Position numbers and translations under genes: made by a program. A DNA stretch of 37,553 bases from the IMG/VR virus record IMGVR_UViG_3300022401_000010; one strand, written 5' to 3'. This DNA is from a virus. This document shows positions 1,804-37,553 of the stretch, piece after piece (position 1 is the first letter of the stretch; each line of letters opens with the position of its first letter). A model generated the notes under the pieces. It did no database searches, was not told the DNA's origin, and saw nothing but the letters and a program-made list of their open reading frames with translations.

Positions 1804-2613
1804 GTGGGTCAGAAGAATTCAGACGTGATATACTTTTTAGAACAGCACAAGCAAGAAATAATTAACAATTGCAAAAAAGGAATGAGTAACAATGACGTAC
1901 GTGAATTATTGAAAACCAAATACGGAAGAGATGTAGCAGATAATACCTATAGAAAATTCAAGGCAACGCTAAAACTAAACAAGAATGATTTCCTGGAAAC
2001 CTTACTGGATGAAATCATTACCATGAAAACGGCTGGGGCCACAGATGAAAACGTTCGAAGGTGGTTAGCTGACGAACACTTATTTGAAGTTAGTCGAGCT
2101 TCATTTTCACGGTTCAAAAAGAAATACCAATTAAGGGATAAGGACAAAGACCCCAGAGCCCAAGACAAAGAAACATTAACTAATCGAGCAATATCACAAG
2201 GCCAACTACTAGACAATGACATCCACACCGATAATATAGATACAGCTATTGATACAATACTACAGCAACAGGTAACTGATATTAAAACCGGCCTTAACAA
2301 TCTTGACAAGATAACCAAGAATGCAGTGAATATTGAAATTGATTTTGCAAAGCTTGATCAGGAAATACGATTTAATGCTAATGAAAAAAGCTTAGCTAGA
2401 TATTTACTGGATTTGGCTGAATTGAAAATTCGTTATTTAGAATTATCTGTTAAAGCATTTGATGCGAAAAATAAACTATTTAAAGATGAGATGGACAGAC
2501 TCTTTAAAAACAGAGTCCTTGAGCTAGAAGATAAGAAAATTGAAATCTCACAAAAAGATTTGATGAATGAAATTGAAGTCCTTGCAAAGCAAATAGATGA
2601 TAATAATGTATGA
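1804..2613 (+). CDS. Putative terminase small subunit (two tandem HTH-like repeats plus helical oligomerisation region)
   Basis: Directly upstream of and overlapping terL; GGAGG upstream of GTG start; two ~45-aa repeats (KGMSNNDVRELL..VADNTYRKFK / AGATDENVRRWL..VSRASFSRFK). Confidence 0.6.
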   Translation: MGQKNSDVIYFLEQHKQEIINNCKKGMSNNDVRELLKTKYGRDVADNTYRKFKATLKLNKNDFLETLLDEIITMKTAGATDENVRRWLADEHLFEVSRASFSRFKKKYQLRDKDKDPRAQDKETLTNRAISQGQLLDNDIHTDNIDTAIDTILQQQVTDIKTGLNNLDKITKNAVNIEIDFAKLDQEIRFNANEKSLARYLLDLAELKIRYLELSVKAFDAKNKLFKDEMDRLFKNRVLELEDKKIEISQKDLMNEIEVLAKQIDDNNV

Positions 2614-4015
2614 TGAAAACAACCGATTCTATTTAGATGCAAGAGATAAAGCTATTCTTCAGAAATGTGTATATGAGAATCCATATATACCATTCAAACC
2701 ATTCATCAAACAAACTGAGATGATTCTAGCTACTGAAAAAGAAGTATTGATTGGTGGTGCTGCCGGAGGCAGTAAATCCACCAGCTTACTTATGAGAGCC
2801 TTATTTTATGTACAAGACGATTGCAATGAATATCATGCACTAATTTTAAGAAGAACATTATCCGATTTAAAAAGGAAAGGTGCTTTAATCCATAAGGCCA
2901 GTCAATGGCTTAACAGGAAAGAAATTCAAAGAGACCCAGCTATTAGGGTTAAGTGGGATGGTACTGAACATTCATGGACTTTTCCAAACGGCAATTCATT
3001 AACATTCGGATATTTGCGTAACATTAACGACCTCGATACTTATCAAGGTTCTGAATATCAATTCATTGGTATTGATGAGTTAACACAACTGGAGCGCTTT
3101 AAATATATCTATATGCGTTCACGTGTCAGGAAAACTAAAGACAATAAACTTCCAACTCAACTGATGGCTTCAAGTAATCCTGGTAAGCGTGGTAACAAGT
3201 GGGTGCGCGAAAGATTTATTGAAAAGATAGATGAGGACATCCAAGACAAAGACCAGATAAGATTCATATCCTCCAGTTATGTGGATAATATCTATTTAGA
3301 CCGTAAGGACTATGAAGAATATCTTATGGGATTGGATAGGGTGACACGGGAACAGTTAATGAATGGTAACTGGTATGCTACCGTTAAAGGTGAGCTATTT
3401 GATGAATCGGATTTCCACTTGATCTCTCACGATGAGTATATGAAAATTCCGATCATTAGTGTTATCAGGTATTGGGATCTTGCAGCTACTGAAGTCATAA
3501 GTGACAGCACCAGGAGAAATGATGATCCGGATTTCACCGCAGGTGTCATGCTGGCAAAAGACTTGAACGGCAATATCTATATTCTTGATTCATACGAGTT
3601 TCAATTGGAATCACGGAACTTAATTAATGAGATTATCAATACTGCTGCACGTGATAAAGCGGACACTCAATATATAGAACTTGACGGAAGTACAGGTAAA
3701 AACTTCGGCCTGTTAATCATTGATGAATTAAACAGACGTGGATTCAATACTGGTACTGGTAACTCCCGTGAGAATAAAGTTGACAGGGCCAGAAGAGTGT
3801 CAGCTGATATTCAGCTCAATGGAATATATCTGGTTGGAAAGGATAGAACAGGGTTTACTAAAAAATGGGCTATGGAATTTTTGGAAAAAATAACTGCATA
3901 TCCTAATGAATCAATACATGACGATTGTGTTGTTGCCTTTACTGGAGCATATGAAAAACTGGCTTCACAAAACCAACCTAAAAGAGTTGATGTCGATAAA
4001 TGGTATTCCACTTGA
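2606..4015 (+). CDS. terL: Terminase large subunit
   Basis: Walker A GGAAGGSKS, Walker B FIGIDE, coupling motif SSNPG, nuclease motifs RYWDLAA and HDD. ATG at 2606 preferred over the track start 2597. Confidence 0.95.
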   Translation: MYDENNRFYLDARDKAILQKCVYENPYIPFKPFIKQTEMILATEKEVLIGGAAGGSKSTSLLMRALFYVQDDCNEYHALILRRTLSDLKRKGALIHKASQWLNRKEIQRDPAIRVKWDGTEHSWTFPNGNSLTFGYLRNINDLDTYQGSEYQFIGIDELTQLERFKYIYMRSRVRKTKDNKLPTQLMASSNPGKRGNKWVRERFIEKIDEDIQDKDQIRFISSSYVDNIYLDRKDYEEYLMGLDRVTREQLMNGNWYATVKGELFDESDFHLISHDEYMKIPIISVIRYWDLAATEVISDSTRRNDDPDFTAGVMLAKDLNGNIYILDSYEFQLESRNLINEIINTAARDKADTQYIELDGSTGKNFGLLIIDELNRRGFNTGTGNSRENKVDRARRVSADIQLNGIYLVGKDRTGFTKKWAMEFLEKITAYPNESIHDDCVVAFTGAYEKLASQNQPKRVDVDKWYST

Positions 4016-4090
4016 ATAGCTATCGTTAATGTGAATATTGAACGTTAATGTTAATATTTGGACTTTATCATGGAGTTGATGTACATGAGC

Positions 4091-4635
4091 ATGGACATAT
4101 TATGGACTGGTCTATGGACTAACCATGGACTACCTTGTGGACTTGATGGACTATACTATGGACTGTTAATGGACTACTTTATGGACTAACTATGGACTAT
4201 TATATGGACTGTTTATGGACTAATCAATGGACAAAGTATGGACTAACCTATGGACTGTTTATGGACTAAGTTATGGATGGACTTAAAGTTGGACTACAAA
4301 TGGACTTATGGATGGACGGATGGACATGTGGACATAACCAAATCAGGTATACCCCCCAAGTGAATTTAATCCAAGCCCAAATTGAGCTTCTTTTTTTAGG
4401 GTGTCCATAGCTATGGACTAACTATGGACTATGTTATGGACTGTTTATGGACTAGACTATGGACTACTTTTTTCATATTTTGTGAAAAATTATTGCCTGC
4501 GAATCTAGTCAAGCGAATATAACATTGTTATCTTTCCAAAATCTACGCAATTTTCAGGGGGTACACATTTTTTTGGGTAGTCCATATGGACGGATGGATG
4601 GACTACAGTCCATTTTATGGACTAGGTTATGGACT
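4091..4635 (+). repeat. Non-coding array of ~31 direct (A/G/T)TGGAC(T) repeats with alternating 11/12-bp spacing, in three blocks, plus three inverted copies
   Basis: Counted by eye: about 22 copies 4091-4333, 5 copies 4413-4464, 4 copies 4586-4634; inverted GTCCAT at 4403, 4580, 4608. Confidence 0.95.
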
Positions 4636-4878
4636 GTTTACCGTGCAACAGTTCACTCTGTCGCGCAAAAATTCATCCCGCGAAAAAATCGATATAATAA
4701 TTTTTTTGCAATTTTACAATTGTAAAATTCTAACAGCAATACAATTTATTATTATACATAAATAATAAAATAATATAATATAATACAAATAAAATAAAAA
4801 AATAAGTTTATATTTTGCTATCATTTTATATAGTAGTAATTCTAAAAATTAATTTATATATTGGAGTGAGTGATAATC

Positions 4879-5037
4879 ATGCCAAATACTAAGCAAAAAT
4901 CATTTAGAATATCTGAAGAGTTAGCAATTGAATTTGAAGTTCATGCTAGAAAAACTCAGACAAAAGAAGTTGATCTTATAACAAGATACATAACAGAGGG
5001 ATTGAAAAGGGATAGTAATCAAACTACATTGGATTAA
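4879..5037 (+). CDS. 52-aa ribbon-helix-helix protein, absent from the ORF track
   Basis: My translation: MPNTKQKSFRISEELAIEFEVHARKTQTKEVDLITRYITEGLKRDSNQTTLD; GGAGTGAG upstream; typical Arc/CopG pattern. Confidence 0.8.
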   Translation: MPNTKQKSFRISEELAIEFEVHARKTQTKEVDLITRYITEGLKRDSNQTTLD

Positions 5038-5077
5038 AATTATTGAAAATGTGTAAAAAAATAGCGATAAGTAGTAA

Positions 5078-5105
5078 TTATGAAATGACGGCAATCATTT
5101 CATAA
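5078..5105 (+). terminator. Perfect 11-bp hairpin after the RHH gene
   Basis: TTATGAAATGA-CGGCAA-TCATTTCATAA. Confidence 0.5.
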
Positions 5106-5317
5106 CACATAAGTTTAAACTTAATTATAATTTTAGAAATTAATTATATTTAAACTTTTATATAAAAAAGTGTATTATATACATAATATTTTTTTCACAT
5201 TTCCAATTCAAGAGTGAGAATGGAAGTGTTATACATGGAAACTGAAACTGACAAGTCTTCCAGTAGAGTGATGGAAGCAAAAAACAATTTAAACAGCTTA
5301 TTATGGAAGTGTTTATA

Positions 5318-5782
5318 ATGGCTGAGAAAAAAGACTTTCATATTTTAGCTGACAGTAAAATGGCATCCAAAGCCAAAGAATTATCTGGTTTAACACACAG
5401 ACAGATTTTTGAGCTAGGTTGTCAAGCTGCTATAGAACAAAACAGGAACATTTTAGATGCTGAGATTTTAGAATTGAATGATGCAATGGATAGGGTTAAT
5501 GAATTAACTGCATCAATTAGATCAAGACTAAAAGATAAAGAGGTTCCAACAAAACCTAGTGATGATGAAAATGATCCTGAAGAATTAAGAAGAAATATTT
5601 TACCATTAGATTTGTTTAAAGAAATGGTATTGTATTATATGGATGATTTTGATATAACTAATTTAGAAGATTTAGGTAGTAAGAATAAAGAAATCTTCAG
5701 ATTCGTTTTAATTAATTTGGCTAACCACGATTTGAATATGGAAGATATAAATAGTTTATATGAGGATATTAACTCTAAATAA
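5318..5782 (+). CDS. RHH-like N-terminus, coiled coil and helical C-terminal domain; hypothetical
   Basis: KKDFHILADSKMASKAKELSGLTHRQIFELG resembles the 1118/1545 products; ATG 5318 preferred over 5303. Confidence 0.6.
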   Translation: MAEKKDFHILADSKMASKAKELSGLTHRQIFELGCQAAIEQNRNILDAEILELNDAMDRVNELTASIRSRLKDKEVPTKPSDDENDPEELRRNILPLDLFKEMVLYYMDDFDITNLEDLGSKNKEIFRFVLINLANHDLNMEDINSLYEDINSK

Positions 5783-5820
5783 CATTTATATCTTCTTTTC
5801 ACCCCACTCTTTTTTTAAAG

Positions 5821-5869
5821 TTGCAACTGTTTTTTCAGGAATTGCAATTAATTGCAACAAAATTGCAAT
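5821..5869. repeat. Mini-array of four TTGCAA palindromes; 32 bp identical to 34273-34304
   Basis: TTGCAA at 5821, 5842, 5852, 5863. Confidence 0.85.
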
Positions 5870-6128
5870 AGGCATTTGGCATGTTAAATTGTTAATGTTA
5901 ATGTAAAAATTCTTTATTATTAATGTAATTGTTTATAATTTTATATTTACTAGAATAATTTATTATTACTAGAATAAATAGTAAATAAAATAGTTATTGT
6001 ATTTCTTTTCCGTGTTAGCGTTATTGTAATTGTTTTTTTATTTTAATTTCATTAACTTTATTATTTTATTTATATAAATAATATAATAATTAATATAATA
6101 AACATATATTTCAACTGTAAAGTTAATT

Positions 6129-22398: not shown

Positions 22399-25083
22399 TT
22401 AATCCTTATTAATCATGAAATCTAATTCATGTTCAAACAATCTAATTAACTCATTGAAAGAATTAATTGGTTGTTTTTCATATTTCTCTTGTTCAACATA
22501 TAATGGGATATATGTAATCTGATTTTGTTGAGAGTTCACATCACTACACCATTCTTTCAATCGAGCAAGTTTTAATGGAACATCCAAATCAGCATTACCT
22601 TTTGTTTCAATTACATATATTTTAGTATCAGAGGTCTTAACTAAGAAATCAGGATAATATTTTGAAATTTTTCCATTTCTATCTTGATACTGAATATGAT
22701 ATTGAACTGCCAGATAATTTTTTGTATAAGAAACAATATCACTGCACCATTCTAATTTTTCAGCAAAACTTAATTCAAAACCACTATCTCCAATAATTTT
22801 ATTAAAAACAGACTTTTGAGGTACAACATATCCTTGTTCTTTAACAATAAATGGATTTGTATCAGCTACGGAATTCCAAGTCATTATTTTTGGTTCTGAA
22901 ACAATAGAGGTAGTGATATTGTTTACATAATATATGAATGTATCAAGAATTGTTTTAGAAACTTCTCTCCTGGAAACATTTTTGATAATATTAGGATCTT
23001 CTAAATCAACAGGCTCTTCAAATAAATAATTTGAAATAAAGTCTTTTAATTTACCATAAACTGTTGCATTACCTGAAACCAACTTTGTTTCTTTTAATAT
23101 AACTCCAGCGTAATATTTGAGCATTGATCTATAGTTGATAGTGTTGCCATCTTTTAATGTTAATGTTTCTCTTTTATCATCGTCAATAATGTGGACAAAA
23201 TTAATTTCTTTAAGTTTATCTTCACCGAAATTAATTATCTCAAACTTATTTACATTAAATTTGCTAACATCCATCTGTTTAAGTTTAATATAATCTTTAT
23301 AAAATGAAGGCTCCAATACTGGGATTAAAATATCTAATTCATCAATATCTTTATTTTCATTATCTAAATCAACCTCAATACGCATTGCATGTGCTGGCCC
23401 AGTAGGACCGATATGAGTTTTACCCAATTTAACCCCCTCACTTTTAATAGATTCAATAAATTCCATAAATGCCTCAGTTCCAATTATCATGAGTCTTTCT
23501 TCAGTATTTCGATACATTTTTCTTAAACCTCTTCCCAAAGTTTGTTCAGGAAGGATTTTTGATTTAGAAGTAAAAGATCTCAAACCAACAATTGTTGTCA
23601 CATTTTTAACATCCCATCCTTCTTTTAATACCAATACAGAAACAATAACTTTATATGGACTATCTAAACTATCAATTTCATTAGCTGCTTTTCTAAGTAT
23701 CTCTAATTCTTCTTTAGCTTTCTTACTTGTTCCATCTTTTAAATCGCCCTTTGCATTAGTATGAATAGTTAAAACTGAATCTTCAAATTCAGGATAGGTT
23801 CTTTCAAGATATTCTGCAACAGCATCACATTTTTTAGTATCTTCAACCATTATAAAAAGAACTGCTTTTTTACCTAAACCAATATGTTCATCATAAGCTT
23901 TTTTCCATTCATGATAACCCACATGAAGATACTCTGCATATCTTTCTTCAACTTTAACTGATTCAACTTCTTTCATATTTTCTCTACTTTCATCATCTGG
24001 AATGAAAGGTTGTTTTACAATATTTTGATGAATTGCTTCAACTAATGGATAATCAGAAACAGTTTGTGGAAAAATAAAACCTTTTGTATCTTTAGGGGTA
24101 GCGGTGAAATCAACTTGCATAGATAACTTATTTCCTTTTTGTTTAAGGTTATAATGGATATCTTCAATTGATTTAAACCACTGTAATTTACTATCATGGA
24201 TATGATGTGCCTCATCATTTAAAATCATTAACTCATCAATATCTCTTACAATATCTCCTAAATCAACATGGTCTTCTTTAACATCTTTTGCTTTCTTACC
24301 TAAGAAATAACCTGTTGTATCCTCATCTTCAAATGATGGTTCAGTATACTTACTATCATAAACTCTATGAATATTTGTTAAAAAGATATTTCCTGTTTTA
24401 TTTATTTGATTTACATTATCTTGAATATGAACATCTAATTGAAAATCAGTTTTCCAGTTCCTACTATGATACCCATCTTCAGGAACCATTGGGTCTAAAA
24501 AGAATGTTTTAAGACCTTCAAAATCAGAACGGATTCTATCCAGCACAATAATGTTTGGAGTAATAACTAAAAAATTTCTAGATAAATCTGAATTATTTTC
24601 ATAAGTTTTATGGAAAAACGACCAGACTAAAATTAAACTTAAAACTTTTGTTTTTCCACTACCAGTCGCCATCTTAACTACAAAACGAGCCCATGACTCA
24701 GGAAAATCTTCAGCTTTAATAATTCCTGAGCTATCATATTTCAATAAATCATGTTTATCTTCAACATTAGCTATTTCATGAAGATATATAATTGTTTCAA
24801 CAGATTCTCTTTGAGCAAAGTAATATTTAAATTCAAAAGGATCGTTATTTACATTTTCAATAAAATGTTCTTCTTCAAACCAGAAATGAAGTAAGGATTT
24901 AGTAGTTTCACTTGCACCTTCATAATCATTGTCTCTCCATTCTTTAACATCACGTCTAATTTTATCTACCAATGGAGGAATAAGATTGAAATTTTTTTCA
25001 ACAGTTTTTGCATCTGGAAACCATCTATTATCTGGATCTAAGACTTCATATGGAGAACTTGGAAAATCAATTGGAAGTGCCAT
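22399..25083 (-). CDS. res: Type III restriction-modification restriction subunit (SF2 helicase-like plus PD-(D/E)xK nuclease)
   Basis: MATGSGKT, DEAHH, TATP, LKEGWDV, QTLGRGLR, YPDF..IETKG. Confidence 0.9.
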   Translation of the reverse strand: MALPIDFPSSPYEVLDPDNRWFPDAKTVEKNFNLIPPLVDKIRRDVKEWRDNDYEGASETTKSLLHFWFEEEHFIENVNNDPFEFKYYFAQRESVETIIYLHEIANVEDKHDLLKYDSSGIIKAEDFPESWARFVVKMATGSGKTKVLSLILVWSFFHKTYENNSDLSRNFLVITPNIIVLDRIRSDFEGLKTFFLDPMVPEDGYHSRNWKTDFQLDVHIQDNVNQINKTGNIFLTNIHRVYDSKYTEPSFEDEDTTGYFLGKKAKDVKEDHVDLGDIVRDIDELMILNDEAHHIHDSKLQWFKSIEDIHYNLKQKGNKLSMQVDFTATPKDTKGFIFPQTVSDYPLVEAIHQNIVKQPFIPDDESRENMKEVESVKVEERYAEYLHVGYHEWKKAYDEHIGLGKKAVLFIMVEDTKKCDAVAEYLERTYPEFEDSVLTIHTNAKGDLKDGTSKKAKEELEILRKAANEIDSLDSPYKVIVSVLVLKEGWDVKNVTTIVGLRSFTSKSKILPEQTLGRGLRKMYRNTEERLMIIGTEAFMEFIESIKSEGVKLGKTHIGPTGPAHAMRIEVDLDNENKDIDELDILIPVLEPSFYKDYIKLKQMDVSKFNVNKFEIINFGEDKLKEINFVHIIDDDKRETLTLKDGNTINYRSMLKYYAGVILKETKLVSGNATVYGKLKDFISNYLFEEPVDLEDPNIIKNVSRREVSKTILDTFIYYVNNITTSIVSEPKIMTWNSVADTNPFIVKEQGYVVPQKSVFNKIIGDSGFELSFAEKLEWCSDIVSYTKNYLAVQYHIQYQDRNGKISKYYPDFLVKTSDTKIYVIETKGNADLDVPLKLARLKEWCSDVNSQQNQITYIPLYVEQEKYEKQPINSFNELIRLFEHELDFMINKD

Positions 25084-27305
25084 TATTTCCCTCCATTATT
25101 AACTTCAATTATTTTCATAGTATCATTACCAAATATATCAACAACTTTTATAGCTATTTTTGTTTTACCTTTTTGTATAGGGTAAGGAGGAGATTTTAAT
25201 AATAATGTCCTATCACTTTTTGTTCTGAAACTTTGCCATTCATTTTCAAAAATATATTTTCCAGTCCATTCTTCCTCATCATTAATTCTAATAATTTCTT
25301 TTTTACTTTCATAATCAAAATCAATAGACCAATAATCTATCCAATCTGTCCAATGATTTGTAATGGTCTCACGCCTAGGTTCTTCTTGTCCTTTTACTTT
25401 CTTTTCTTTAACTAAATTACCATTAACTATCTTTAAAACACCTCTAGCTGTAGGTTTTTTATTTTCATCTTGATTATAGAAAACAGCGAAATCTGTTAAT
25501 TCAATAGAAATATTATTATTTTCTAATTCATATTCTACATCAATATATGAGACGTCATAGAATTTCACTTGGTCTTTTTCAATAGCTCTCTTATCAAAAA
25601 CATCCTTAGGAATGTACTTTAAACTTAAATCAATAGATTTATCTTTTGCATAATCTTGAACATCTGGGAATAACCCCATTTCAAATTCAAAACCTAAGAT
25701 ATCAACTTTTGTTAATTTCTTTTCAATACATTCATTAATAACCTCTTCAACAAACAATCTTGAAACAGGCATATCAATAGGGCCAATAGAAACAAATCTA
25801 CCTAATTTATTACCTTTAAGAGTATTAAATCCTTTAATAGGTTCTGCCTTATATGCAGATAAGATTAGGGAAGTAAATTGTTTTTCTTTTTGAGCTAATA
25901 TTTTTTCTTGATTTTCGTCAAGTGCTTCAGAATTAATATCCATATAATATTGTCTTTCATACTTTCCAAGATTCAAAATTTCAAATGATCTATAATCTTT
26001 TCCAGAATCTTTTAATTCTCTTTGAATCTTAATCATTCTTTTTCGTGTAGTATGTATTGAAAATTTACCTAAATCTGAACCAATCCATTTTCTACCAAGT
26101 TTTTCTGCAACAGCTAATGTTGTTCCAGAACCACAGAAAAAGTCAGCAATTATATCATTTTCATTTGAAGCCATCTTTATAATCCTTTCAACTAATGTTT
26201 CTGGCTTTTGGGTAGGATATCCAACTTTTTCGTTACCTGAAACTACAGAAATATCATCCCAAACATCATTAATTAATTGTCCTTCAGATTCATCAAGATA
26301 TTGTTTTCTATATGGCCTTCCAGTTGAAGACCATTCCAATTTACCTTCTTCATCTAATTTAATTAGTTTATCTTTTGTCATTAACCATCTGGTTTCAGGA
26401 ATATATCCTTTATATTCATATTTTGGAGAATTACCTCCTAATGCAGGATTTGCAACGACATCGTGTCTTCTATATAAACGACCATCTGCATCTTCTTTAA
26501 ATTGTTTTTTAATATATTCTTCATCATATTCCTTATATACAGGATTGAAAATCACATTTTTACTTTTAGTATAATATAAAATAGTATCATGTGAATTTGA
26601 GATTCTTGTTTTTCCTGAAGAGCTTGTTTTTCTTTTCCAAATAAATTCGTTAGAAAAGAATTCTTTCCCGAATATTTCATCCAAAACTAACCTTAAATAT
26701 GCATTAACTCTCCAGTCGCAATGAATAAAAATAGAACCATCATCTGCTAATAAATCTCTCATTAAAGAAATTCTCTCATAAATCATTGCAATAAAACTAT
26801 CAGAACCATTTCCCCATGTATCTCTATAAGCAATTTCTTCTAAAACATTTTGTTTTTTAGTTATTGATTCATCGCCAATTTCAATATCCATTGAAAAGTC
26901 TGCACCAACATCAAAGGGAGGATCAATATAAATAAGTTTTAATCCACCTTGAGATTCAATCTCTTGTCTTAATGGACCATTTTTAAGACTACTTAAAATT
27001 AATTTATTGTCTCCCCAGATTAATTTATTAGACCATCCTTGAATCTGTCTGCCTCTTTGGTCAACATCAAAGTTAAACAAATCGGATTGTTTAAAAGATG
27101 TTGTTCCTGTCTTTCTAGGTTCATCAATACATTCTATTGTTTGAAAAGGTAAAACAACGTTTGACTTTTCATTAGTTTTTCCATCCCAAATTAATTCAAC
27201 TTTCCTATTACTATCAAAAAGTTTGAATCTATATTCATCAGGTAAAGACTCATCATCCTCAATCATTTGGATAATTTCTCTTTTTTGATTATCTGTTAAC
27301 TTCAT
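25083..27305 (-). CDS. mod: Type III restriction-modification methyltransferase subunit
   Basis: LIYIDPPF (motif IV) before DFFCGSGTT (motif I), beta-class order; TAATG overlap with res. Confidence 0.9.
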
Positions 27306-30972: not shown

Positions 30973-31914
30973 TCAAGATGAACTATTTTTCTTTAAATAC
31001 TTTGATAATATTGATTTAGAAATTTTACACTCTTCAGAAATTTCATCTAGTGTTAAACCGAGTTTTAAATTTTTTTTAATATAAGTTACACCACCAAAAT
31101 TCTTCAATCCTAATTCAACAGTCCATTTTGAAATTTGATTATTTAGTTTTTGGGGATTAATTCCTTTATAATTCAAATAGTCATTAAAGAATTTACGTTT
31201 AATATTTAAATTCTCACATATCTCTTTAATAGACTTACCATTGACTAATTCATCAATTATAAATAAAACTCCTCCTTTTTCATCAATGATTGTATAATCA
31301 TCTTTGAAACCTCTAGCTTGTTTGACAAGTTCATGCCATGTGGAAATTCCTTGTTCATTCAAATATTCTTTGATATAACTTTGAGGAACTTTCAAATCTA
31401 ATGCTGCTTGTTTTTGTGTTTTATTTTCCTTTGCAAGTTCATATAATTTTGTAAATCCCCCATTATTGTTGATATGTCTCATTTTAAAATAATGTGCTTC
31501 AACTCTGTCTAATTCCCTAGCTAGATTTATTTGTTCCTGAATATCTGCTCTTACTTTAGAAGAGTTTCCACCATATTTGAGATTATAACCTTTTTCAGGA
31601 TTTGTTGAATCAAAATAATCAATCCAGTATTCTTCAGCTTCATCAAGATTTTCTTTGGATGTTTTCTCAATTATTCTGAATTCAAATGCTTCCTCACCAT
31701 ATTTATTAAAAGCATTTTGCAAATAGGGATTATTGTGTATATTGTTTTTTAATTCGAATTTATGATTTCTCCATCTCTTTTTGATGTCAGATGATTGGCC
31801 AATGTATCCTTTATTATTTTTCAGATTGGTGATTTTGTATATTCCACAGTTTGAATTTTCAACTTCAGATTCTAAATCTTCAAATATATCGAGTTTACGA
31901 TATTTACTCAACAT
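30973..31914 (-). CDS. GIY-YIG endonuclease with C-terminal HTH-like repeats
   Basis: CGIYKITN..GYIGQS..KKRWRNH, EEYWI, GYN motifs. Confidence 0.9.
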   Translation of the reverse strand: MLSKYRKLDIFEDLESEVENSNCGIYKITNLKNNKGYIGQSSDIKKRWRNHKFELKNNIHNNPYLQNAFNKYGEEAFEFRIIEKTSKENLDEAEEYWIDYFDSTNPEKGYNLKYGGNSSKVRADIQEQINLARELDRVEAHYFKMRHINNNGGFTKLYELAKENKTQKQAALDLKVPQSYIKEYLNEQGISTWHELVKQARGFKDDYTIIDEKGGVLFIIDELVNGKSIKEICENLNIKRKFFNDYLNYKGINPQKLNNQISKWTVELGLKNFGGVTYIKKNLKLGLTLDEISEECKISKSILSKYLKKNSSS

Positions 31915-32667: not shown

Positions 32668-33789
32668 TTAGATTAACTTAACTTCTTCCTTCGGAACATA
32701 CTCTATTGTATCCGTTGGTTCTTTTTCCACCTCTATTTCTTCAAGTTCAACAGGTTCTTTATCTTTAACGATAGTGTTATGTTTGCCATTGAAGAAAGTG
32801 TTAATCCTTGTTAATGACTTTGTATCTCCTAACAAGTGATTATAATCCTTAGCTAGTTCGTTATACTTTAACTTATAGCTATTGAGCTCTTGAGTGTAAG
32901 CCAGTAACATTTGCGCTTTTTCTTCAGTGTGCTTAAGTTCCATATCTGATTTTTGATTGGTAAGCTTAAGGTCAACTTCAGCAGTTAATTTATTTAATTC
33001 AGCTTCAGCATCATTTATTTTTTCCTGCAATTCCTGAAGTGCAGCGTAATGTTCTTTAGGTGGAACATACTCTTTAAAGCCGGAAAAAGATTCTACTTTT
33101 TTAGTTAATTCATCTATATGTGATTGTTGTTTTTTAATAGTTTCTTTCAATTCTTTTTCTCTTGTTTCAAAATTAGATTGGAGTTCTCTTTTTGTTTCCT
33201 CATAATTTTTATTTAAGCCGATAATATTTTCATTGAGGAGTTTATTGGTTTCGTTAATGTGATCGTTAGCAGTTTTCAATTGCTCATTGTCTTTAATCAA
33301 CTCTTCATTTCTAGCTACTACGCCATCAGATGTTTCAATCATATTTTCATATGCATTCTGCCAATATTGATGTTGACCACGTTCTGATTCCAAATCTTCT
33401 TTTAATTGTTCGATTTCATCTTTATCGTGGACTTTAGGTTGGCTTTTATTTGATTCAAGTTCTTTTCCAAGTGAATCAACTCTATCCTTTAGAGTATTTA
33501 TCATTTCATCTTTTTCCTGAATCTGTTTTTCCAAATCTTCAGCGTTACTGTCGGATGAGCTATTGAGTATTTTATTTTCAAGCTCTTTTATTCTAGACTT
33601 GTATTCATCCACTTGATCCATATCCTTGATTAAGTCAAAGTGCTGCTGTTCTGACAGGACATAGACTTTTTCACCAACACCAAATAAGCTATTGCTGAAT
33701 CCTATCCTGTTTGCATTCTTTGTATTTTTCTTGACTTCAAATTCAAGACCGAATCTTTCATCTGACTTTTTGAGTTTTTTCTCGGTCAT
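32668..33789 (-). CDS. Long coiled-coil protein with small N-terminal beta (AbrB/DUF2080-like) domain
   Basis: EVKKNTKNANRIG..GEKVYVLSE then ~270 aa of heptad-rich sequence; GGAGTG RBS before ATG 33789 (track start 33816). Confidence 0.6.
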   Translation of the reverse strand: MTEKKLKKSDERFGLEFEVKKNTKNANRIGFSNSLFGVGEKVYVLSEQQHFDLIKDMDQVDEYKSRIKELENKILNSSSDSNAEDLEKQIQEKDEMINTLKDRVDSLGKELESNKSQPKVHDKDEIEQLKEDLESERGQHQYWQNAYENMIETSDGVVARNEELIKDNEQLKTANDHINETNKLLNENIIGLNKNYEETKRELQSNFETREKELKETIKKQQSHIDELTKKVESFSGFKEYVPPKEHYAALQELQEKINDAEAELNKLTAEVDLKLTNQKSDMELKHTEEKAQMLLAYTQELNSYKLKYNELAKDYNHLLGDTKSLTRINTFFNGKHNTIVKDKEPVELEEIEVEKEPTDTIEYVPKEEVKLI

Positions 33790-33845
33790 CACATTCACTC
33801 CAATATCCTTACACATATTTTTATAATATCATATATTTTATAGTA

Positions 33846-34545
33846 TTGCAATCAATTGCAATTTTATTGCAACAATAATTGCAACAGTTGCAACTGGAAT
33901 TGCAATTCTATTTTTGAAAATTGCAACTCAAAATTATGTTGAAAATTGTTTAATTTTGAAATTTTAAAAAAAAAATAAACGATAAATGTTATTTTTCAGG
34001 GTTTATTGTTTGCTTGCAGGAATGATTAATTATTGTAATACTTGTAAGACAATACATACATTTCCTTGGTATGCCACTATAAGGTCGAAAAATGGGGGTG
34101 GTGAGTGATACAGATGTGCCGGTTGCTACTCTGCAGTTTCACAATGTAGTACAATAATTTATATACATTCGTGTAAGTATTACATATTGCAACAATTGCA
34201 ACTTTAAAATAATGAATTGCAACTTCAATTAAAATGGGGTCAAATACGGATTTTCCGACTTTTTCGATTTTGGGAATTGCAATTAATTGCAACAAAATTG
34301 CAATTCATATACCCAAAAATTGCAACTAAATTGCAATTTCTTCAAGAGGTTAAATTTGACTTTCTTAAAATTACCTTTGTTCATTTTTCTATAAGAAATA
34401 CTATAAAATATTGAACAAACTAATAATTAAAAATTGCAATTAATTGCAACTCTGATCGTGGTTTTCAGGGTGAAAATTTCAAGAGTTGCAACTGAGTTGC
34501 AATAAAGTTGCAACAAAATTGCAATAGTTGCAACTGGAATTGCAA
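33846..34545. repeat. Two blocks of phased TTGCAA palindromes (7 copies 33846-33926; 16 copies 34187-34545) around a central spacer
   Basis: Counted by eye; most neighbours are 9-12 bp apart. Confidence 0.9.
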
Positions 34546-34666: not shown

Positions 34667-35497
34667 ATGATATATAAATTATATAATATGTCAAGTAATA
34701 GTATAAGCTGGACAAGTTTCTGCCAGGCTATGAACTCAATAGCATACTGGCTACTCCAGAATAAAAAACAATATAAGAAACGTGATTACTACCAAATGCT
34801 CAAACTGAAAGGTAGTTGCAAAGATATAGAGAAGCGCGCGAAAAAATTAGGTAACGATAAGCTAGTGGCAATGTATACAATGGCCGTCATTAAAGATAAC
34901 AAGTCTTTGGATTTCCTTCCCAATTATGTAACGTTAAAGAACGGAGAGGAAATCGATAAAGCGGAATACATTGACATGGCCATAAGAACTGAAAGCTACA
35001 TCAAGGCCAATAAAAGATATCCTGCAATAGTATATAGGATGTCCAAACTTCCTGACTATAAAGATACAACAATGAAGTTCTTTATCAAAACCTTCAATTA
35101 TAAAGGCAATACCATTGATGAGGCCTTAGCTATTATAGCAAACAAGAAATTATATAGTAAGTACTTTGATTCACAGAAAACTGATAAACAAACCATCAAT
35201 GATGCAAGTAAAGGTAAAGGCTCCAACTGTGTGGACTGGGGACAGGTATATTACCGTATCGCCAAAAGCTTAGGTTATGACGTGCAGTTCATCCACGTCA
35301 AGTGTCGTGTCAGCGGTACTGGCCATATCAGATTAAGGCTGAGACATAAGAAACATACAGGAGGAAACTGGATCAACCGTGACCCTGCAGCAGTAGCAGA
35401 TTCAACTTCAGGTAATGTTAGATCCATATGGTGTGAGGATGGATATGTTATAGCATACGATCCAAGTTGGATATTTACAGATTTATATTCAAGTTAA
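34667..35497 (+). CDS. Pseudomurein endoisopeptidase (PeiW/PeiP-like endolysin)
   Basis: Pseudomurein-binding repeat EYIDMAIRTESYIKANKRYP; Cys-His-Asp triad in NCVDW, GHIRL, RDPAA. Confidence 0.85.
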   Translation: MIYKLYNMSSNSISWTSFCQAMNSIAYWLLQNKKQYKKRDYYQMLKLKGSCKDIEKRAKKLGNDKLVAMYTMAVIKDNKSLDFLPNYVTLKNGEEIDKAEYIDMAIRTESYIKANKRYPAIVYRMSKLPDYKDTTMKFFIKTFNYKGNTIDEALAIIANKKLYSKYFDSQKTDKQTINDASKGKGSNCVDWGQVYYRIAKSLGYDVQFIHVKCRVSGTGHIRLRLRHKKHTGGNWINRDPAAVADSTSGNVRSIWCEDGYVIAYDPSWIFTDLYSS

Positions 35498-35987: not shown

Positions 35988-37553
35988 TTAAAGTATTCCA
36001 AGTTTTTTAGCGGTCTTTTCATCAACCTTACCGGTCACCTTAAGACCATTATCTTTTTGGAACTCCTTAAGGGATCTTTCAGTGCAACCTTTGAACTTAC
36101 CATCCACTTTCAAGTAATGGCCTTGATAAGTTAAATAGTAACCTTTATTTTTTAAAGCCCTTTGGATTTCCTTAACGGTTGCTTTATCCTTGCTTCCTTT
36201 AGATACTGTCTTGAAGGTTACAATAACCTTGATATTGGCTTTTTTAGATACCTTGTTGTAGTACTTGTTTCCTTTATAGGTTATTGTTGCCTTGAAGGTT
36301 CCTTTCTTGTTGAGTTTGGTAATCTTGAAGGTAGCCTTACCTTTACTGTTGGTAGTTGCCTTGTAGGTTTTGCCTTTGACTTTCAGGGTGACTTTTGCCT
36401 TCTTGATTGCCTTTCCAGTGTTGTCCTTTAAAACAATGGAGTATTTCTTGGTTTTAGTTGATTTCTTGAATGTTTTCTTTTTAGCAGTCAATTTAGGAGT
36501 AGCCTTCTTAACAGTAACCTTAATGTCTTTAGTTGACTTGTCATAGTTGGTATCGCCGTTGAATGTTACCTTAGCAGTGTATGCTTTAGGTGCAAGTCCT
36601 TTGGTTGATACCTTGACCTGGCCGTTCTTGTCGGTTGTGTATGTTTTGGCACCGTTTAAATCAACAGTTACTTTAACACCGCTTAAAGCTTTGCCAGTAA
36701 TGTCTTTCAATGTGATAACCAAATCCTTGTTAACATTATATGTAGTTGTTATTGCATTGCTTGTTAATTCTGTTTTAAGTTTATTAACTGTTATTGTAGC
36801 GTTTTTAGTTACGTTATTGTGATTCTTATCACCTATTGCAGTAACAGTTAAGGTATAGGTTCCTGCGTCTAAATCGGAAACGGTAATGTTGGTACCATTC
36901 ACTTTAACAACAGCTTTAGGTTGGCCAACTACAGTGGCGTTAACACCGTCAGCACCGGTGAGGGAAACAACAGTAGAACCTGAACTACTATAATCAAATA
37001 TGATATCACTGACTGTTAATGTGGAATTAACCTTATTAACAGTGATGTTTACTTCTTTAGTTACAGGGTTGTAATCATCATCAGGTATTGTTGTTACTGT
37101 TAAAGTGTAGGTTCCTGCATCTAAAACCGGAATGGAAATTACAAATCCAGTAACATTAGCTTCGCTCTCACCAATCTTAGCAGTGATTCCAGTAGCACCA
37201 GTAGTTGTCACAGTAACATTTTCGGATTCACCATAATCTAAAACAATATTATCCAATGAGATTGTTGAATTAACTTTATTAATGGTTATAGTTCCATTGT
37301 TGATAGTGACATTGTCCAGTCCAACATAGGTTGCATTTACTTGATAAACATCATATTTATCAAATTCATGTACCGCCCACCATGTACCGTTAGCACCATA
37401 GGTTGCCTCGATTTGGGTACCGTTTGGTAAGATAAATAGTAATTTACCTGGCATGACCTCACTGTAGATATTTGATTTTGCAGTGATGTTGACAGTCTTG
37501 TTAGTGGTTGTCTGGGAGGTGACATTAACATTGAATTTAGTGTTGTTTGTGAT
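35988..37553 (-). CDS. Adhesin-like surface protein (Ig-like repeats plus C-terminal peptidoglycan-binding domain), 5' end outside window
   Basis: Frame stays open to the window end (ITNNTKFNVNV..EVMPGK); Thr/Val/Lys-rich Ig-like repeats; VKEIQRAL..VDG.F..T...KEFQKDNGLKVTGKVD. Confidence 0.85.
   Translation of the reverse strand: MTNNTKFNVNVTSQTTTNKTVNITAKSNIYSEVMPGKLLFILPNGTQIEATYGANGTWWAVHEFDKYDVYQVNATYVGLDNVTINNGTITINKVNSTISLDNIVLDYGESENVTVTTTGATGITAKIGESEANVTGFVISIPVLDAGTYTLTVTTIPDDDYNPVTKEVNITVNKVNSTLTVSDIIFDYSSSGSTVVSLTGADGVNATVVGQPKAVVKVNGTNITVSDLDAGTYTLTVTAIGDKNHNNVTKNATITVNKLKTELTSNAITTTYNVNKDLVITLKDITGKALSGVKVTVDLNGAKTYTTDKNGQVKVSTKGLAPKAYTAKVTFNGDTNYDKSTKDIKVTVKKATPKLTAKKKTFKKSTKTKKYSIVLKDNTGKAIKKAKVTLKVKGKTYKATTNSKGKATFKITKLNKKGTFKATITYKGNKYYNKVSKKANIKVIVTFKTVSKGSKDKATVKEIQRALKNKGYYLTYQGHYLKVDGKFKGCTERSLKEFQKDNGLKVTGKVDEKTAKKLGIL

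Follow-up and report, generated by a model that had tools for sequence, protein, structure and literature searches.

A phased repeat array in the place of integration functions is a candidate episome-maintenance site in a tailed virus of Methanobrevibacter-type methanogens

The IMG/VR virus record IMGVR_UViG_3300022401_000010 (37,553 nucleotides; hereafter the window, meaning the whole stretch of DNA that was analysed) is the DNA of a tailed virus of a Methanobrevibacter-type methanogen. Between the gene for the large terminase subunit (terL) and the portal gene, the window carries an array of short phased repeats with the core TGGACT, which is followed by two small genes encoding a ribbon-helix-helix-like (RHH-like) protein, RHH55, and an orphan protein, o159. 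Here, we report that the cores and their phasing are under selection and that the array is a strongly selected cis element that defines a non-integrating virus lineage. The array is probably a site through which the virus is maintained as an episome, acting either like a centromere or as an origin.

The hexamer ATGGAC occurs 45 times in the window, compared with 15.9 ± 4.1 expected copies, and none of 100 shuffled sequences reached 45. The interval 4091-4635 holds 31 of the 45 copies, 28 direct and 3 inverted (4403, 4580 and 4608). An earlier first-pass annotation, made from the sequence alone, had given about 31 copies as direct, which has to be lowered to 28, while its three inverted copies and three blocks were found as described. 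When the 5-mer TGGAC was scored, 35 cores (32 direct and 3 inverted) were found in three blocks over 0.58 kb (4059-4635), beginning 44 bp past the terL stop codon. The core spacing alternates between 11 and 12 bp, exactly as the first-pass annotation had listed for the starts from 4146 to 4261, and the autocorrelation check that it had proposed gave a peak at 23 bp across homologous arrays. Therefore, the real unit is a 23-bp dimer with two cores. The parts of the array are as follows.

4059..4333, plus strand: block 1, 23 direct TGGAC cores, most of which read (T)ATGGACT; the alternation is strictly 12/11 in the centre (4147-4262)
4334..4402: island 1, a spacer that is conserved and free of repeats, holding a G/C element at 4346-4357 and a T7 run at 4391-4397
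4403..4465, plus strand: block 2, one inverted and five direct cores with spacings of 11, 11, 12, 11 and 12
4466..4579: island 2, a conserved spacer with an AT-rich start, a short palindrome and a T7 run
4580..4635, plus strand: block 3, six cores, inverted at 4580 and 4608 and direct at 4587, 4599, 4618 and 4630, forming two dyads

The core-to-core gaps over islands 1 and 2 are 74 and 120 bp, respectively. Each island has its T7 run at the end and then leads into an inverted core; for island 1, this core and the first core of block 2 together form a 16-bp dyad. Island 2 carries the G/C element of island 1 in an inverted copy at 4557-4566. A coding repeat was excluded, as the 23-bp unit is not a multiple of 3 and strains differ by 23-bp indels. 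A structured RNA or a hairpin origin was not supported either: single-strand folding was not significantly better than that of shuffled sequences for island 1 (z=+0.6) and island 2 (z=-0.9), and the region after the array likewise folded no better. In the gap from the terL stop to the first core, a 19-bp repeat was observed in two and a third copies (4013-4056).

Homologous arrays were collected from Caudoviricetes sp. vir323, the nearest record by TerL (93.6% identity; a circular record of 34,179 bp from a goat faecal enrichment, host Methanobacteriales), from five genomes of the genus (contigs G211:C25, G175:C4, G202:C162, G232:C24 and G183:C21/C136), and from seven metagenome contigs reached via the neighbouring gene o159; the loci of the most divergent o159 homologues (55-64% identity) were left out of the comparison. 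The TGGACT core was identical in every array collected, and one layout was found throughout, namely a variable block 1, an island of about 74 bp, block 2, an island of 110-120 bp, and a block 3 of mixed orientation. Among the neighbouring spacing pairs in 12 homologous arrays, 181 alternated between 11 and 12 bp and 2 repeated the same value. The mean pairwise identity across 12 sequences was 0.71 in the linkers, 0.82 in the islands and 0.99 in the core columns, the last value being biased slightly upward because these columns were taken from the consensus. As the genes adjoining the array share 76-81% DNA identity between relatives, the linkers drift at about the gene rate and the cores and phasing are held, which agrees with the first-pass remark that the linkers vary under a kept hexamer and spacing. 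These results indicate selection on the cores and on their phasing.

Copy number varies between relatives in block 1, by 23-bp indels, and blocks 2 and 3 are nearly fixed in layout. The island elements were judged from alignments of 6 and of 13 relatives. The core-to-core distance over island 1 was 74 bp in 12 of the 13 arrays and 75 bp in the remaining one; over island 2 it was 120 bp, with 110 bp in the G175c4 lineage and 119 bp in L070. The layout of block 2 was unchanged in 10 of 13 tabulated arrays, the variants being one extra core in L067 (spacings of 11, 11, 12, 11, 5 and 7), two extra cores in L070, and one change of the fifth core in the alignment of G232c24. The pattern of block 3 (inverted, 19, 9 (inverted), 10, 12) was kept in the relatives. 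The blastn match of vir323 covers 4048-4900 of the window, with shared sequence from 4049 on, and the first core there lies only 18 bp past the terL stop.

The distribution of the array was followed through its neighbour terL. A TerL search in 314 genomes of the family found the gene in 82, including 63 of the 103 genomes of the genus. The phased pattern was present in 5 of these 103 genomes, only on virus contigs, and was absent from the other 98; a reversed control pattern gave no match. At about 25 array-less loci, the block o63-o82-269aa-TerL is conserved, in which the 269-aa protein is the putative small terminase subunit (TerS), and homology stops at the terL stop codon. In these array-less relatives, TerL and the putative TerS are 89-91% and 78-85% identical to those of the window. 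The virus family was found integrated in 63 of the 103 genus genomes, often in 2-5 copies each, with terL always at one provirus end.

Three array-less loci, when extended, were complete integrated proviruses, one in G169:C1 (547-591 kb) and two in G173:C1 (400-450 kb and 1783-1827 kb). Their portal gene lies toward one end and terL at the other, and their structural genes are 80-96% identical to those of the window. The array, RHH55 and o159 are all absent from these proviruses, and the array was not found within 60-80 kb around them. A tyrosine integrase is located at the portal-side end, far from terL; the provirus G173b is flanked by 127-bp direct repeats, one 45 bp after terL and the other beside the integrase, and the slot in G169 also holds an MCM helicase and a PIN toxin pair. 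No trace of the attachment (att) repeat of the integrating relatives was found in the window. The 2.1 kb between terL and the portal gene of the window, with the array, RHH55, o159 and four TTGCAA motifs, is the slot of the sisters' attP, integrase and replication genes: this lineage has lost the attachment site and integrase slot and has the array, RHH55 and o159 there instead. The expectation in the first-pass annotation that homologous elements carry an array at this locus was borne out among the non-integrating homologues, all of which have it, and failed among the integrating ones, all of which lack it. In G169, an HNH endonuclease gene (L037:1333-2586) and a 181-aa fragment of the 3' part of terL (about L037:3832-4374, 66% identity) were observed 3' of the integrated terL; an earlier integration at this site, or homing, may have left them behind.

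The array-bearing genomes are contigs of 34-37.5 kb with no host flanks. Besides the circular vir323 record, signs of circularity are a 141-bp terminal overlap in G211:C25 and an exact circular permutation in G232:C24. The gene o159 was found in the same 5 array genomes plus one fragment, and the array was present at each of the 7 metagenome loci whose upstream DNA was long enough; RHH55 was found only in array-bearing genomes. Genes specific to the array lineage are RHH55, o159, and those for a 382-aa coiled-coil protein, a 72-aa open reading frame (ORF) and a 75-aa ORF. Plasmid-like carriage is plausible in this virus group, as psiM2 has been reported in a 2026 preprint to be able to persist as an episome (10.64898/2026.10.07.757236).

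The array ends 245 bp 5' of the RHH55-o159 operon, which holds these two genes only. The features from the end of the array to the portal promoter are listed below; the promoter candidate among them was read against the archaeal B recognition element (BRE)/TATA consensus.

4676..4706, plus strand: BRE/TATA-like element, promoter candidate, directly 3' of block 3 and nearly invariant in six relatives
4710..4729: perfect palindrome of 20 bp, likely the RHH55 operator
4730..4865, plus strand: leader of 88% A+T, conserved in relatives, in which a TATA-like box (4825-4832) and a ribosome-binding site precede RHH55
4879..5037, plus strand: RHH55, 52 aa, ribbon-helix-helix-like with a strand-helix-helix sequence pattern, a putative CopG-like autoregulator
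5318..5782, plus strand: o159, orphan, 154 aa from the conserved start, candidate array-binding adaptor
5821..5868: four TTGCAA motifs, lying past o159 and ahead of the portal promoter

The palindrome and the small gene starting at ATG 4879 were both present as the first-pass annotation had described them. RHH55 had no match in Pfam, PHROG or PDB sequence searches; one of its neighbour clusters in the ESM Atlas is CopG/RHH_1 (score 0.91), which serves as a lead only. In G202c162 and the G175c4 lineage, the predicted DNA-facing strand residues of RHH55 are changed (S to T; R to K), and the palindrome is changed or lost alongside them, with the TGGACT cores invariant there. Because its contact residues co-vary with the palindrome and not with the cores, RHH55 fits a palindrome-binding, CopG-like autoregulator. 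The first-pass annotation had suggested the RHH protein at 4879 for the array; co-variation and linkage point instead to o159 for the array and leave the 4879 protein to the palindrome.

By exclusion and linkage, o159 is the best candidate and the likely array binder, as judged from sequence comparison. In the structure predicted for o159 (predicted local distance difference test score, pLDDT, 80), an RHH-like segment at the N-terminus is followed by a long, putatively dimerising helix and then by an acidic/proline linker, and the C-terminal part is a conserved, well-predicted helical domain with no known fold. Residues 12-50 gave weak alignments (Z about 4) with many RHH domains, and the strand residues D11, F12 and H13 are invariant. 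Pfam, PHROG and PDB sequence searches gave no match for o159 and no recognised enzymatic domain, and in the fold searches the best Foldseek hit against PDB had an E value of 2.6 and VIA-align gave nothing above Z 4.8. A homodimer was predicted via helix 47-83 with a score of 0.74, compared with 0.00 for the best control (contact agreement at least 98%, pLDDT at least 82); in the calibration of this score, the mark was reached by 20 of 30 solved homodimers and 1 of 23 monomers. The model thus gives support, not proof, for pairing of o159 as a homodimer. The o159 family gave 117 clusters at 90% identity, whose stated source names were all Methanobrevibacter or unnamed; at 50% identity there were 9 representatives among 1.84 billion proteins. 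A profile search of these 1.84 billion proteins gave no remote relatives, PLSDB plasmids gave none, and phage records gave only vir323. The N-terminus of o159 (5318-5450; 45 residues) shares a strand-helix-helix-like motif with o63 (1118-1309) and o82 (1545-1793), and the three look like paralogues. The genes o63 and o82, kept in both lineages directly 5' of the putative TerS gene, could encode the real DNA-recognition partners of the terminase.

The 24 public runs that were found consist of assembled contigs; in metatranscriptome contigs, transcript ends, strand and level are unreadable, and gaps in array cover (X16-X18) carry no weight. In two runs, RHH55-o159 formed a separate contig of about 1 kb (about 4859-5857), starting about 25 nt 3' of the TATA-like box, with depths of 68 and 34 compared with 3-12 for other virus contigs, although contig depths are a crude measure and DNA carry-over is possible. 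This hints at an RHH55-o159 operon that is more active in gut samples than any other part of the genome, which would suit maintenance or immunity genes of a carried element. In runs X5 and X16, contigs join sequence like that of the window up to 9195, via 32 other letters, to 4687 onward. This join suggests a relative with the cassette of RHH55 promoter and gene elsewhere and no array upstream, or could be a low-complexity artefact.

A second phased repeat family, TTGCAA (27 copies at intervals of about 10-11 bp), was likewise confined to the non-integrating lineage. In addition to the four motifs after o159, 23 motifs lie in three clusters at 33846-34545 (including 33846-33926 and 34187-34545), within the following module.

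32668..34545: second lineage-specific module, with the 382-aa coiled-coil gene (32668-33816, minus strand), the 72-aa ORF and TTGCAA clusters

The motifs sit 5' of the portal gene, of the gene for the pseudomurein endoisopeptidase (Pei) lysin, and of the 382-aa coiled-coil gene, whose product had no family or fold assignment and no ESM Atlas lead. The set looks more like a set of operators; it could possibly be an origin or a single-protein partition site, for which pSK1 Par was taken as the comparison.

Host-type origin recognition boxes (ORBs) were examined as well. The oriC repeats of the host beside cdc6 read TACACTTGAAAT. At two mismatches or fewer, 6 matches were found in the window compared with 9.7 expected, and none lay within the array. 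An Orc1/Cdc6-dependent origin with the host ORB was rejected, as the boxes are not enriched and the array has none. Separately, a 10-mer at 6108-6117, about 10 bp before the portal start, is the reverse complement of the core of the host oriC mini-ORB. The homologous position was compared in five relatives and in G169: the 10-mer is conserved in array-bearing genomes, one integrated provirus has a one-letter variant, and two others lack it. As it is present in an array-less provirus, this ORB-like 10-mer on the portal side is not part of the array module.

How the array could maintain an episome is sketched here from these data. Dimers of o159 may bind each TGGACT core through the N-terminal RHH-like segment. 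Two cores 11 bp apart would form the 23-bp unit, and 15-20 such units could be coated cooperatively into one nucleoprotein filament. The helical protein filament that the first-pass annotation had read from the 11.5-bp mean pitch is likewise conjectural, the real period being 23 bp with two cores. The conserved C-terminal domain of o159 might then engage the host, with a ParA/MinD-type ATPase, chromatin or the division apparatus as its partner, and so distribute the episomes at division. RHH55 would bind the palindrome at 4710-4729 and autoregulate the RHH55-o159 operon as CopG-like proteins do, a step that is partly supported by the co-variation described above. The dyad blocks 2 and 3, beside T-runs and the 88% A+T tract, may additionally act as a replicator.

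That the array is a centromere-like site for segregation or tethering in a non-integrating, plasmid-like lineage is the reading that we favour over the others, although we give it less than an even chance. Plasmid centromeres (R1, TP228, pB171 and pSM19035) have as their hallmark long arrays of 4-11-bp repeats to which RHH proteins bind, and the window has short phased repeats directly 5' of the operon of a candidate binder. Further features that favour a centromere are the 30-40 sites, their spacing of one helical turn as in the 11-bp repeats of R1 parC, the mixture of direct and inverted copies, the freely varying copy number of block 1, the RHH-like candidate binder and the adaptor build of o159. 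Both the centromere and the iteron options of the first-pass annotation gained from the replacement of the integration slot and from the strict linkage to two DNA-binding-type genes, and its pac option lost.

The array is most like RHH-type plasmid centromeres, iteron-like in phasing and, by analogy only, similar to oriP of Epstein-Barr virus (EBV) in layout. R1 parC/ParR and pSK41 parC likewise have direct repeats of about 10-11 bp in blocks around a non-repeat core, 5' of the operon of a small RHH binder, and their cooperative coating gives a superhelical or ring-shaped segrosome. R1 differs in having 10 repeats and the actin-like motor ParM; the window has 30-40 cores at 11/12 spacing with inverted copies and two islands, no nucleoside triphosphatase (NTPase) gene was found in it, and its putative binder is an orphan with an extra C-terminal domain, in a tailed-virus replicon of an archaeal host. 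In TP228 parH/ParG, pB171 parC1-parC2/ParB and the omega heptads of pSM19035, 7-18 copies of a 4-7-bp motif occur in direct and inverted orientation, each motif binds one RHH dimer, and the same protein autoregulates. Their motifs are contiguous or 8 bp apart and are served by a Walker-type ParA, whereas here the cores form 23-bp pairs one turn apart and no ParA was found. EBV oriP/EBNA1 combines a variable-copy family of repeats with a dyad symmetry element, has no motor NTPase of its own and tethers to host structures; this likeness is a layout analogy only, as domain of life, protein fold and the 30-bp repeat differ. pRN1 orf56-orf904 and pMV158 copG-repB resemble the operon in that an RHH protein of about 50 aa acts on a palindrome in its own promoter and is co-transcribed with a downstream maintenance gene; that gene encodes a large replicase in both plasmids, and here a 154-aa protein with no recognised enzymatic domain.

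Several points weigh against maintenance of an episome by the array. In the window ORFs that were scanned, Pfam did not find a partition NTPase of the ParA, ParM or TubZ type, nor an integrase, helicase, primase, polymerase or Rep. As the NTPase is the feature that fails, we did not file the array as a member of the RHH-type centromeres, and the centromere and origin readings are both without their usual enzyme partner. The RHH fold of RHH55 and o159 was not confirmed by the Pfam, PHROG and PDB sequence searches, and the dimer model of o159 pairs central helices and contains no RHH sheet. The TTGCAA array could be the centromere or origin instead. Finally, virus-sized or circular contigs can also derive from terminally redundant virion DNA, as the authors of the MSTV1 study noted for their virus (PMC11375127); such contigs would also fit a purely lytic virus, so that episomal carriage of the window virus is inferred.

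An iteron-type origin or copy-control site is possible and, we think, unlikely. On this account, o159 would be a small initiator on the 23-bp units that melts AT-rich DNA and recruits host MCM and primase, with RHH55 as a CopG-like regulator that is transcribed first, as in pMV158 copG-repB and pRN1 orf56-orf904. The lineage would need a host-dependent origin in its specific DNA, as it has no MCM of the kind seen in the integrating relative and no replicase was found by Pfam in the ORFs scanned. The 23-bp period with two cores per unit matches the phasing of about 22 bp of the classical iterons of RK2, P1, F and R6K. Direct repeats and dyads occur together with T-runs and the 88% A+T tract, and a small RHH gene precedes a second gene in one transcript-like contig, in the layout of copG-rep. 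RK2 oriV, P1 oriR/incA, F oriS and R6K gamma share with the array the ~22-23-bp phasing, AT-rich DNA alongside, inverted copies close to the promoter of the neighbouring gene, and additional repeat clusters that serve copy control. However, their units are 17-22-bp sites for winged-helix Rep proteins, 3-9 per cluster, and the array has a 6-7-bp core twice per 23 bp in 15-20 units, with no Rep found. The 30-40 cores are far above the number that origins use, and the copy number of block 1 differs freely between strains. No known initiator family or enzymatic domain was found in o159, which had no fold match above Z 5, and to our knowledge RHH proteins do not act as initiators. The host ORB count speaks against this reading too, and the TTGCAA region at 33846-34545, with its own A/T tract, is an equally good candidate origin.

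A platform for silencing or insulation, in which an RHH repressor (RHH55, o159 or both) nucleates on the array and spreads or loops to shut the late operons (terL and portal), with the T-runs ending the terL transcript, is doubtful. In its favour, RHH proteins are classical repressors, and the array is placed between two late operons, just 5' of the RHH55 promoter, with a T7 run in each island. RHH55-o159 also appears as highly represented in the metatranscriptome contigs as a lysogeny-type repressor would be. Nevertheless, operators normally number 2-6 and overlap promoters, and here 35 phased sites occupy a promoter-poor 0.58 kb. The promoter-proximal TTGCAA family fits an operator role better, and the integrating sisters regulate the same late operons without the array. 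A role other than centromere, iteron origin, regulatory platform or pac site is, in our estimate, improbable to a similar degree.

The least probable reading, a pac site at which an oligomer of the small terminase would wrap the phased array and so set where headful cutting starts, had been offered by the first-pass annotation as a pac/TerS loading site. Its appeal is that the array adjoins the terminase genes and that phased repeats wrap a TerS ring at SPP1 pac and hexamer clusters occur in P1 pac, so that in SPP1 pacL/pacR and P1 pac, too, short repeats near terminase genes organise protein-wrapped DNA. The related virus MSTV1 also appears to use headful packaging (PMC11375127). Those sites co-occur with their own terminase, whereas viruses with essentially the same terminase as the window lack the array at about 25 loci, which makes TerS recognition an unlikely role. 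The putative TerS is equally like that of the window in array-less (78-85%) and array-bearing viruses (77-83%). Columns diagnostic for array presence numbered 2 of 128 variable columns in TerS, 3 of 110 in TerL and none in o63. The pattern occurs in none of the 98 other genus genomes, the portal gene of psiM2 directly follows terL, and the array is linked to RHH55 and o159 instead. We leave this reading a small residual chance, as TerS was called by position only.

An archaeal tailed virus that persists as a plasmid by means of a motor-less bipartite element, in which variable repeats and fixed dyad blocks, arranged as in EBV oriP, are coated by the orphan RHH/coiled-coil adaptor o159 hitchhiking on a host structure, is a tentative picture that we would not expect to hold in every part. 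In the literature searched, this array or module was not described, and no such element was found for archaeal tailed viruses. If the picture were true, the array would be, as far as this search extends, the first centromere-like element of an archaeal tailed virus or a methanogen episome, and the sister viruses would have undergone a natural swap of integrase and MCM for array and adaptor. In human and ruminant guts, methane is produced mainly by Methanobrevibacter species, for which genetic tools are very few and hardly any extrachromosomal replicons have been characterised. A cassette of about 2 kb, with the array and two small genes, appears to keep a 35-kb virus extrachromosomal, and would if so be a candidate maintenance module for shuttle vectors. 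Sister lineages with near-identical structural and packaging genes and alternative lifestyle modules are a natural experiment on integrative versus plasmid-like lysogeny. For structural studies of the binding protein, the strict 11/12 alternation across strains sets an exact geometric constraint.

Other features of the window concern the virus itself, and the two terminase genes are listed first.

1804..2613, plus strand: putative TerS, 269 aa, called by position only, overlapping the terL start
2597..4015, plus strand: TerL, Pfam Terminase_6N/6C, phrog_979 (E=3e-83)

More distant TerL relatives are psiM2 and psiM100. The putative TerS had weak Pfam matches only (Clr5 HTH, E=0.0012; Mu gp27, E=0.027), and showed neither similarity to the TerS of psiM2 nor a PDB match. 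The Pei lysin is encoded at 34667-35497, and two paralogues of HK97-type capsid protein are also present. No RNA family was found in the window by Rfam; the GC skew of the window tracks gene orientation and cannot place an origin, and a scan for bacterial promoters and terminators was uninformative as the host is an archaeon. Relative to the virus map, the window is circularly permuted, without terminal overlap and with a small gap at an adhesin-like ORF (35988-37553, with Ig-like repeats and a peptidoglycan-binding domain), which runs off the window end. A type III restriction-modification cassette (22399-27305; Res 894 aa and Mod 740 aa) is also present in the provirus G173b (76-82% identity). 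A link of the array to this cassette was rejected, since the cassette is missing from the other array-bearing genomes, and it is therefore a mobile cargo cassette. A gene at 30973-31914 resembling GIY-YIG homing endonucleases, with several helix-turn-helix (HTH) domains, was present only in the window and vir323.

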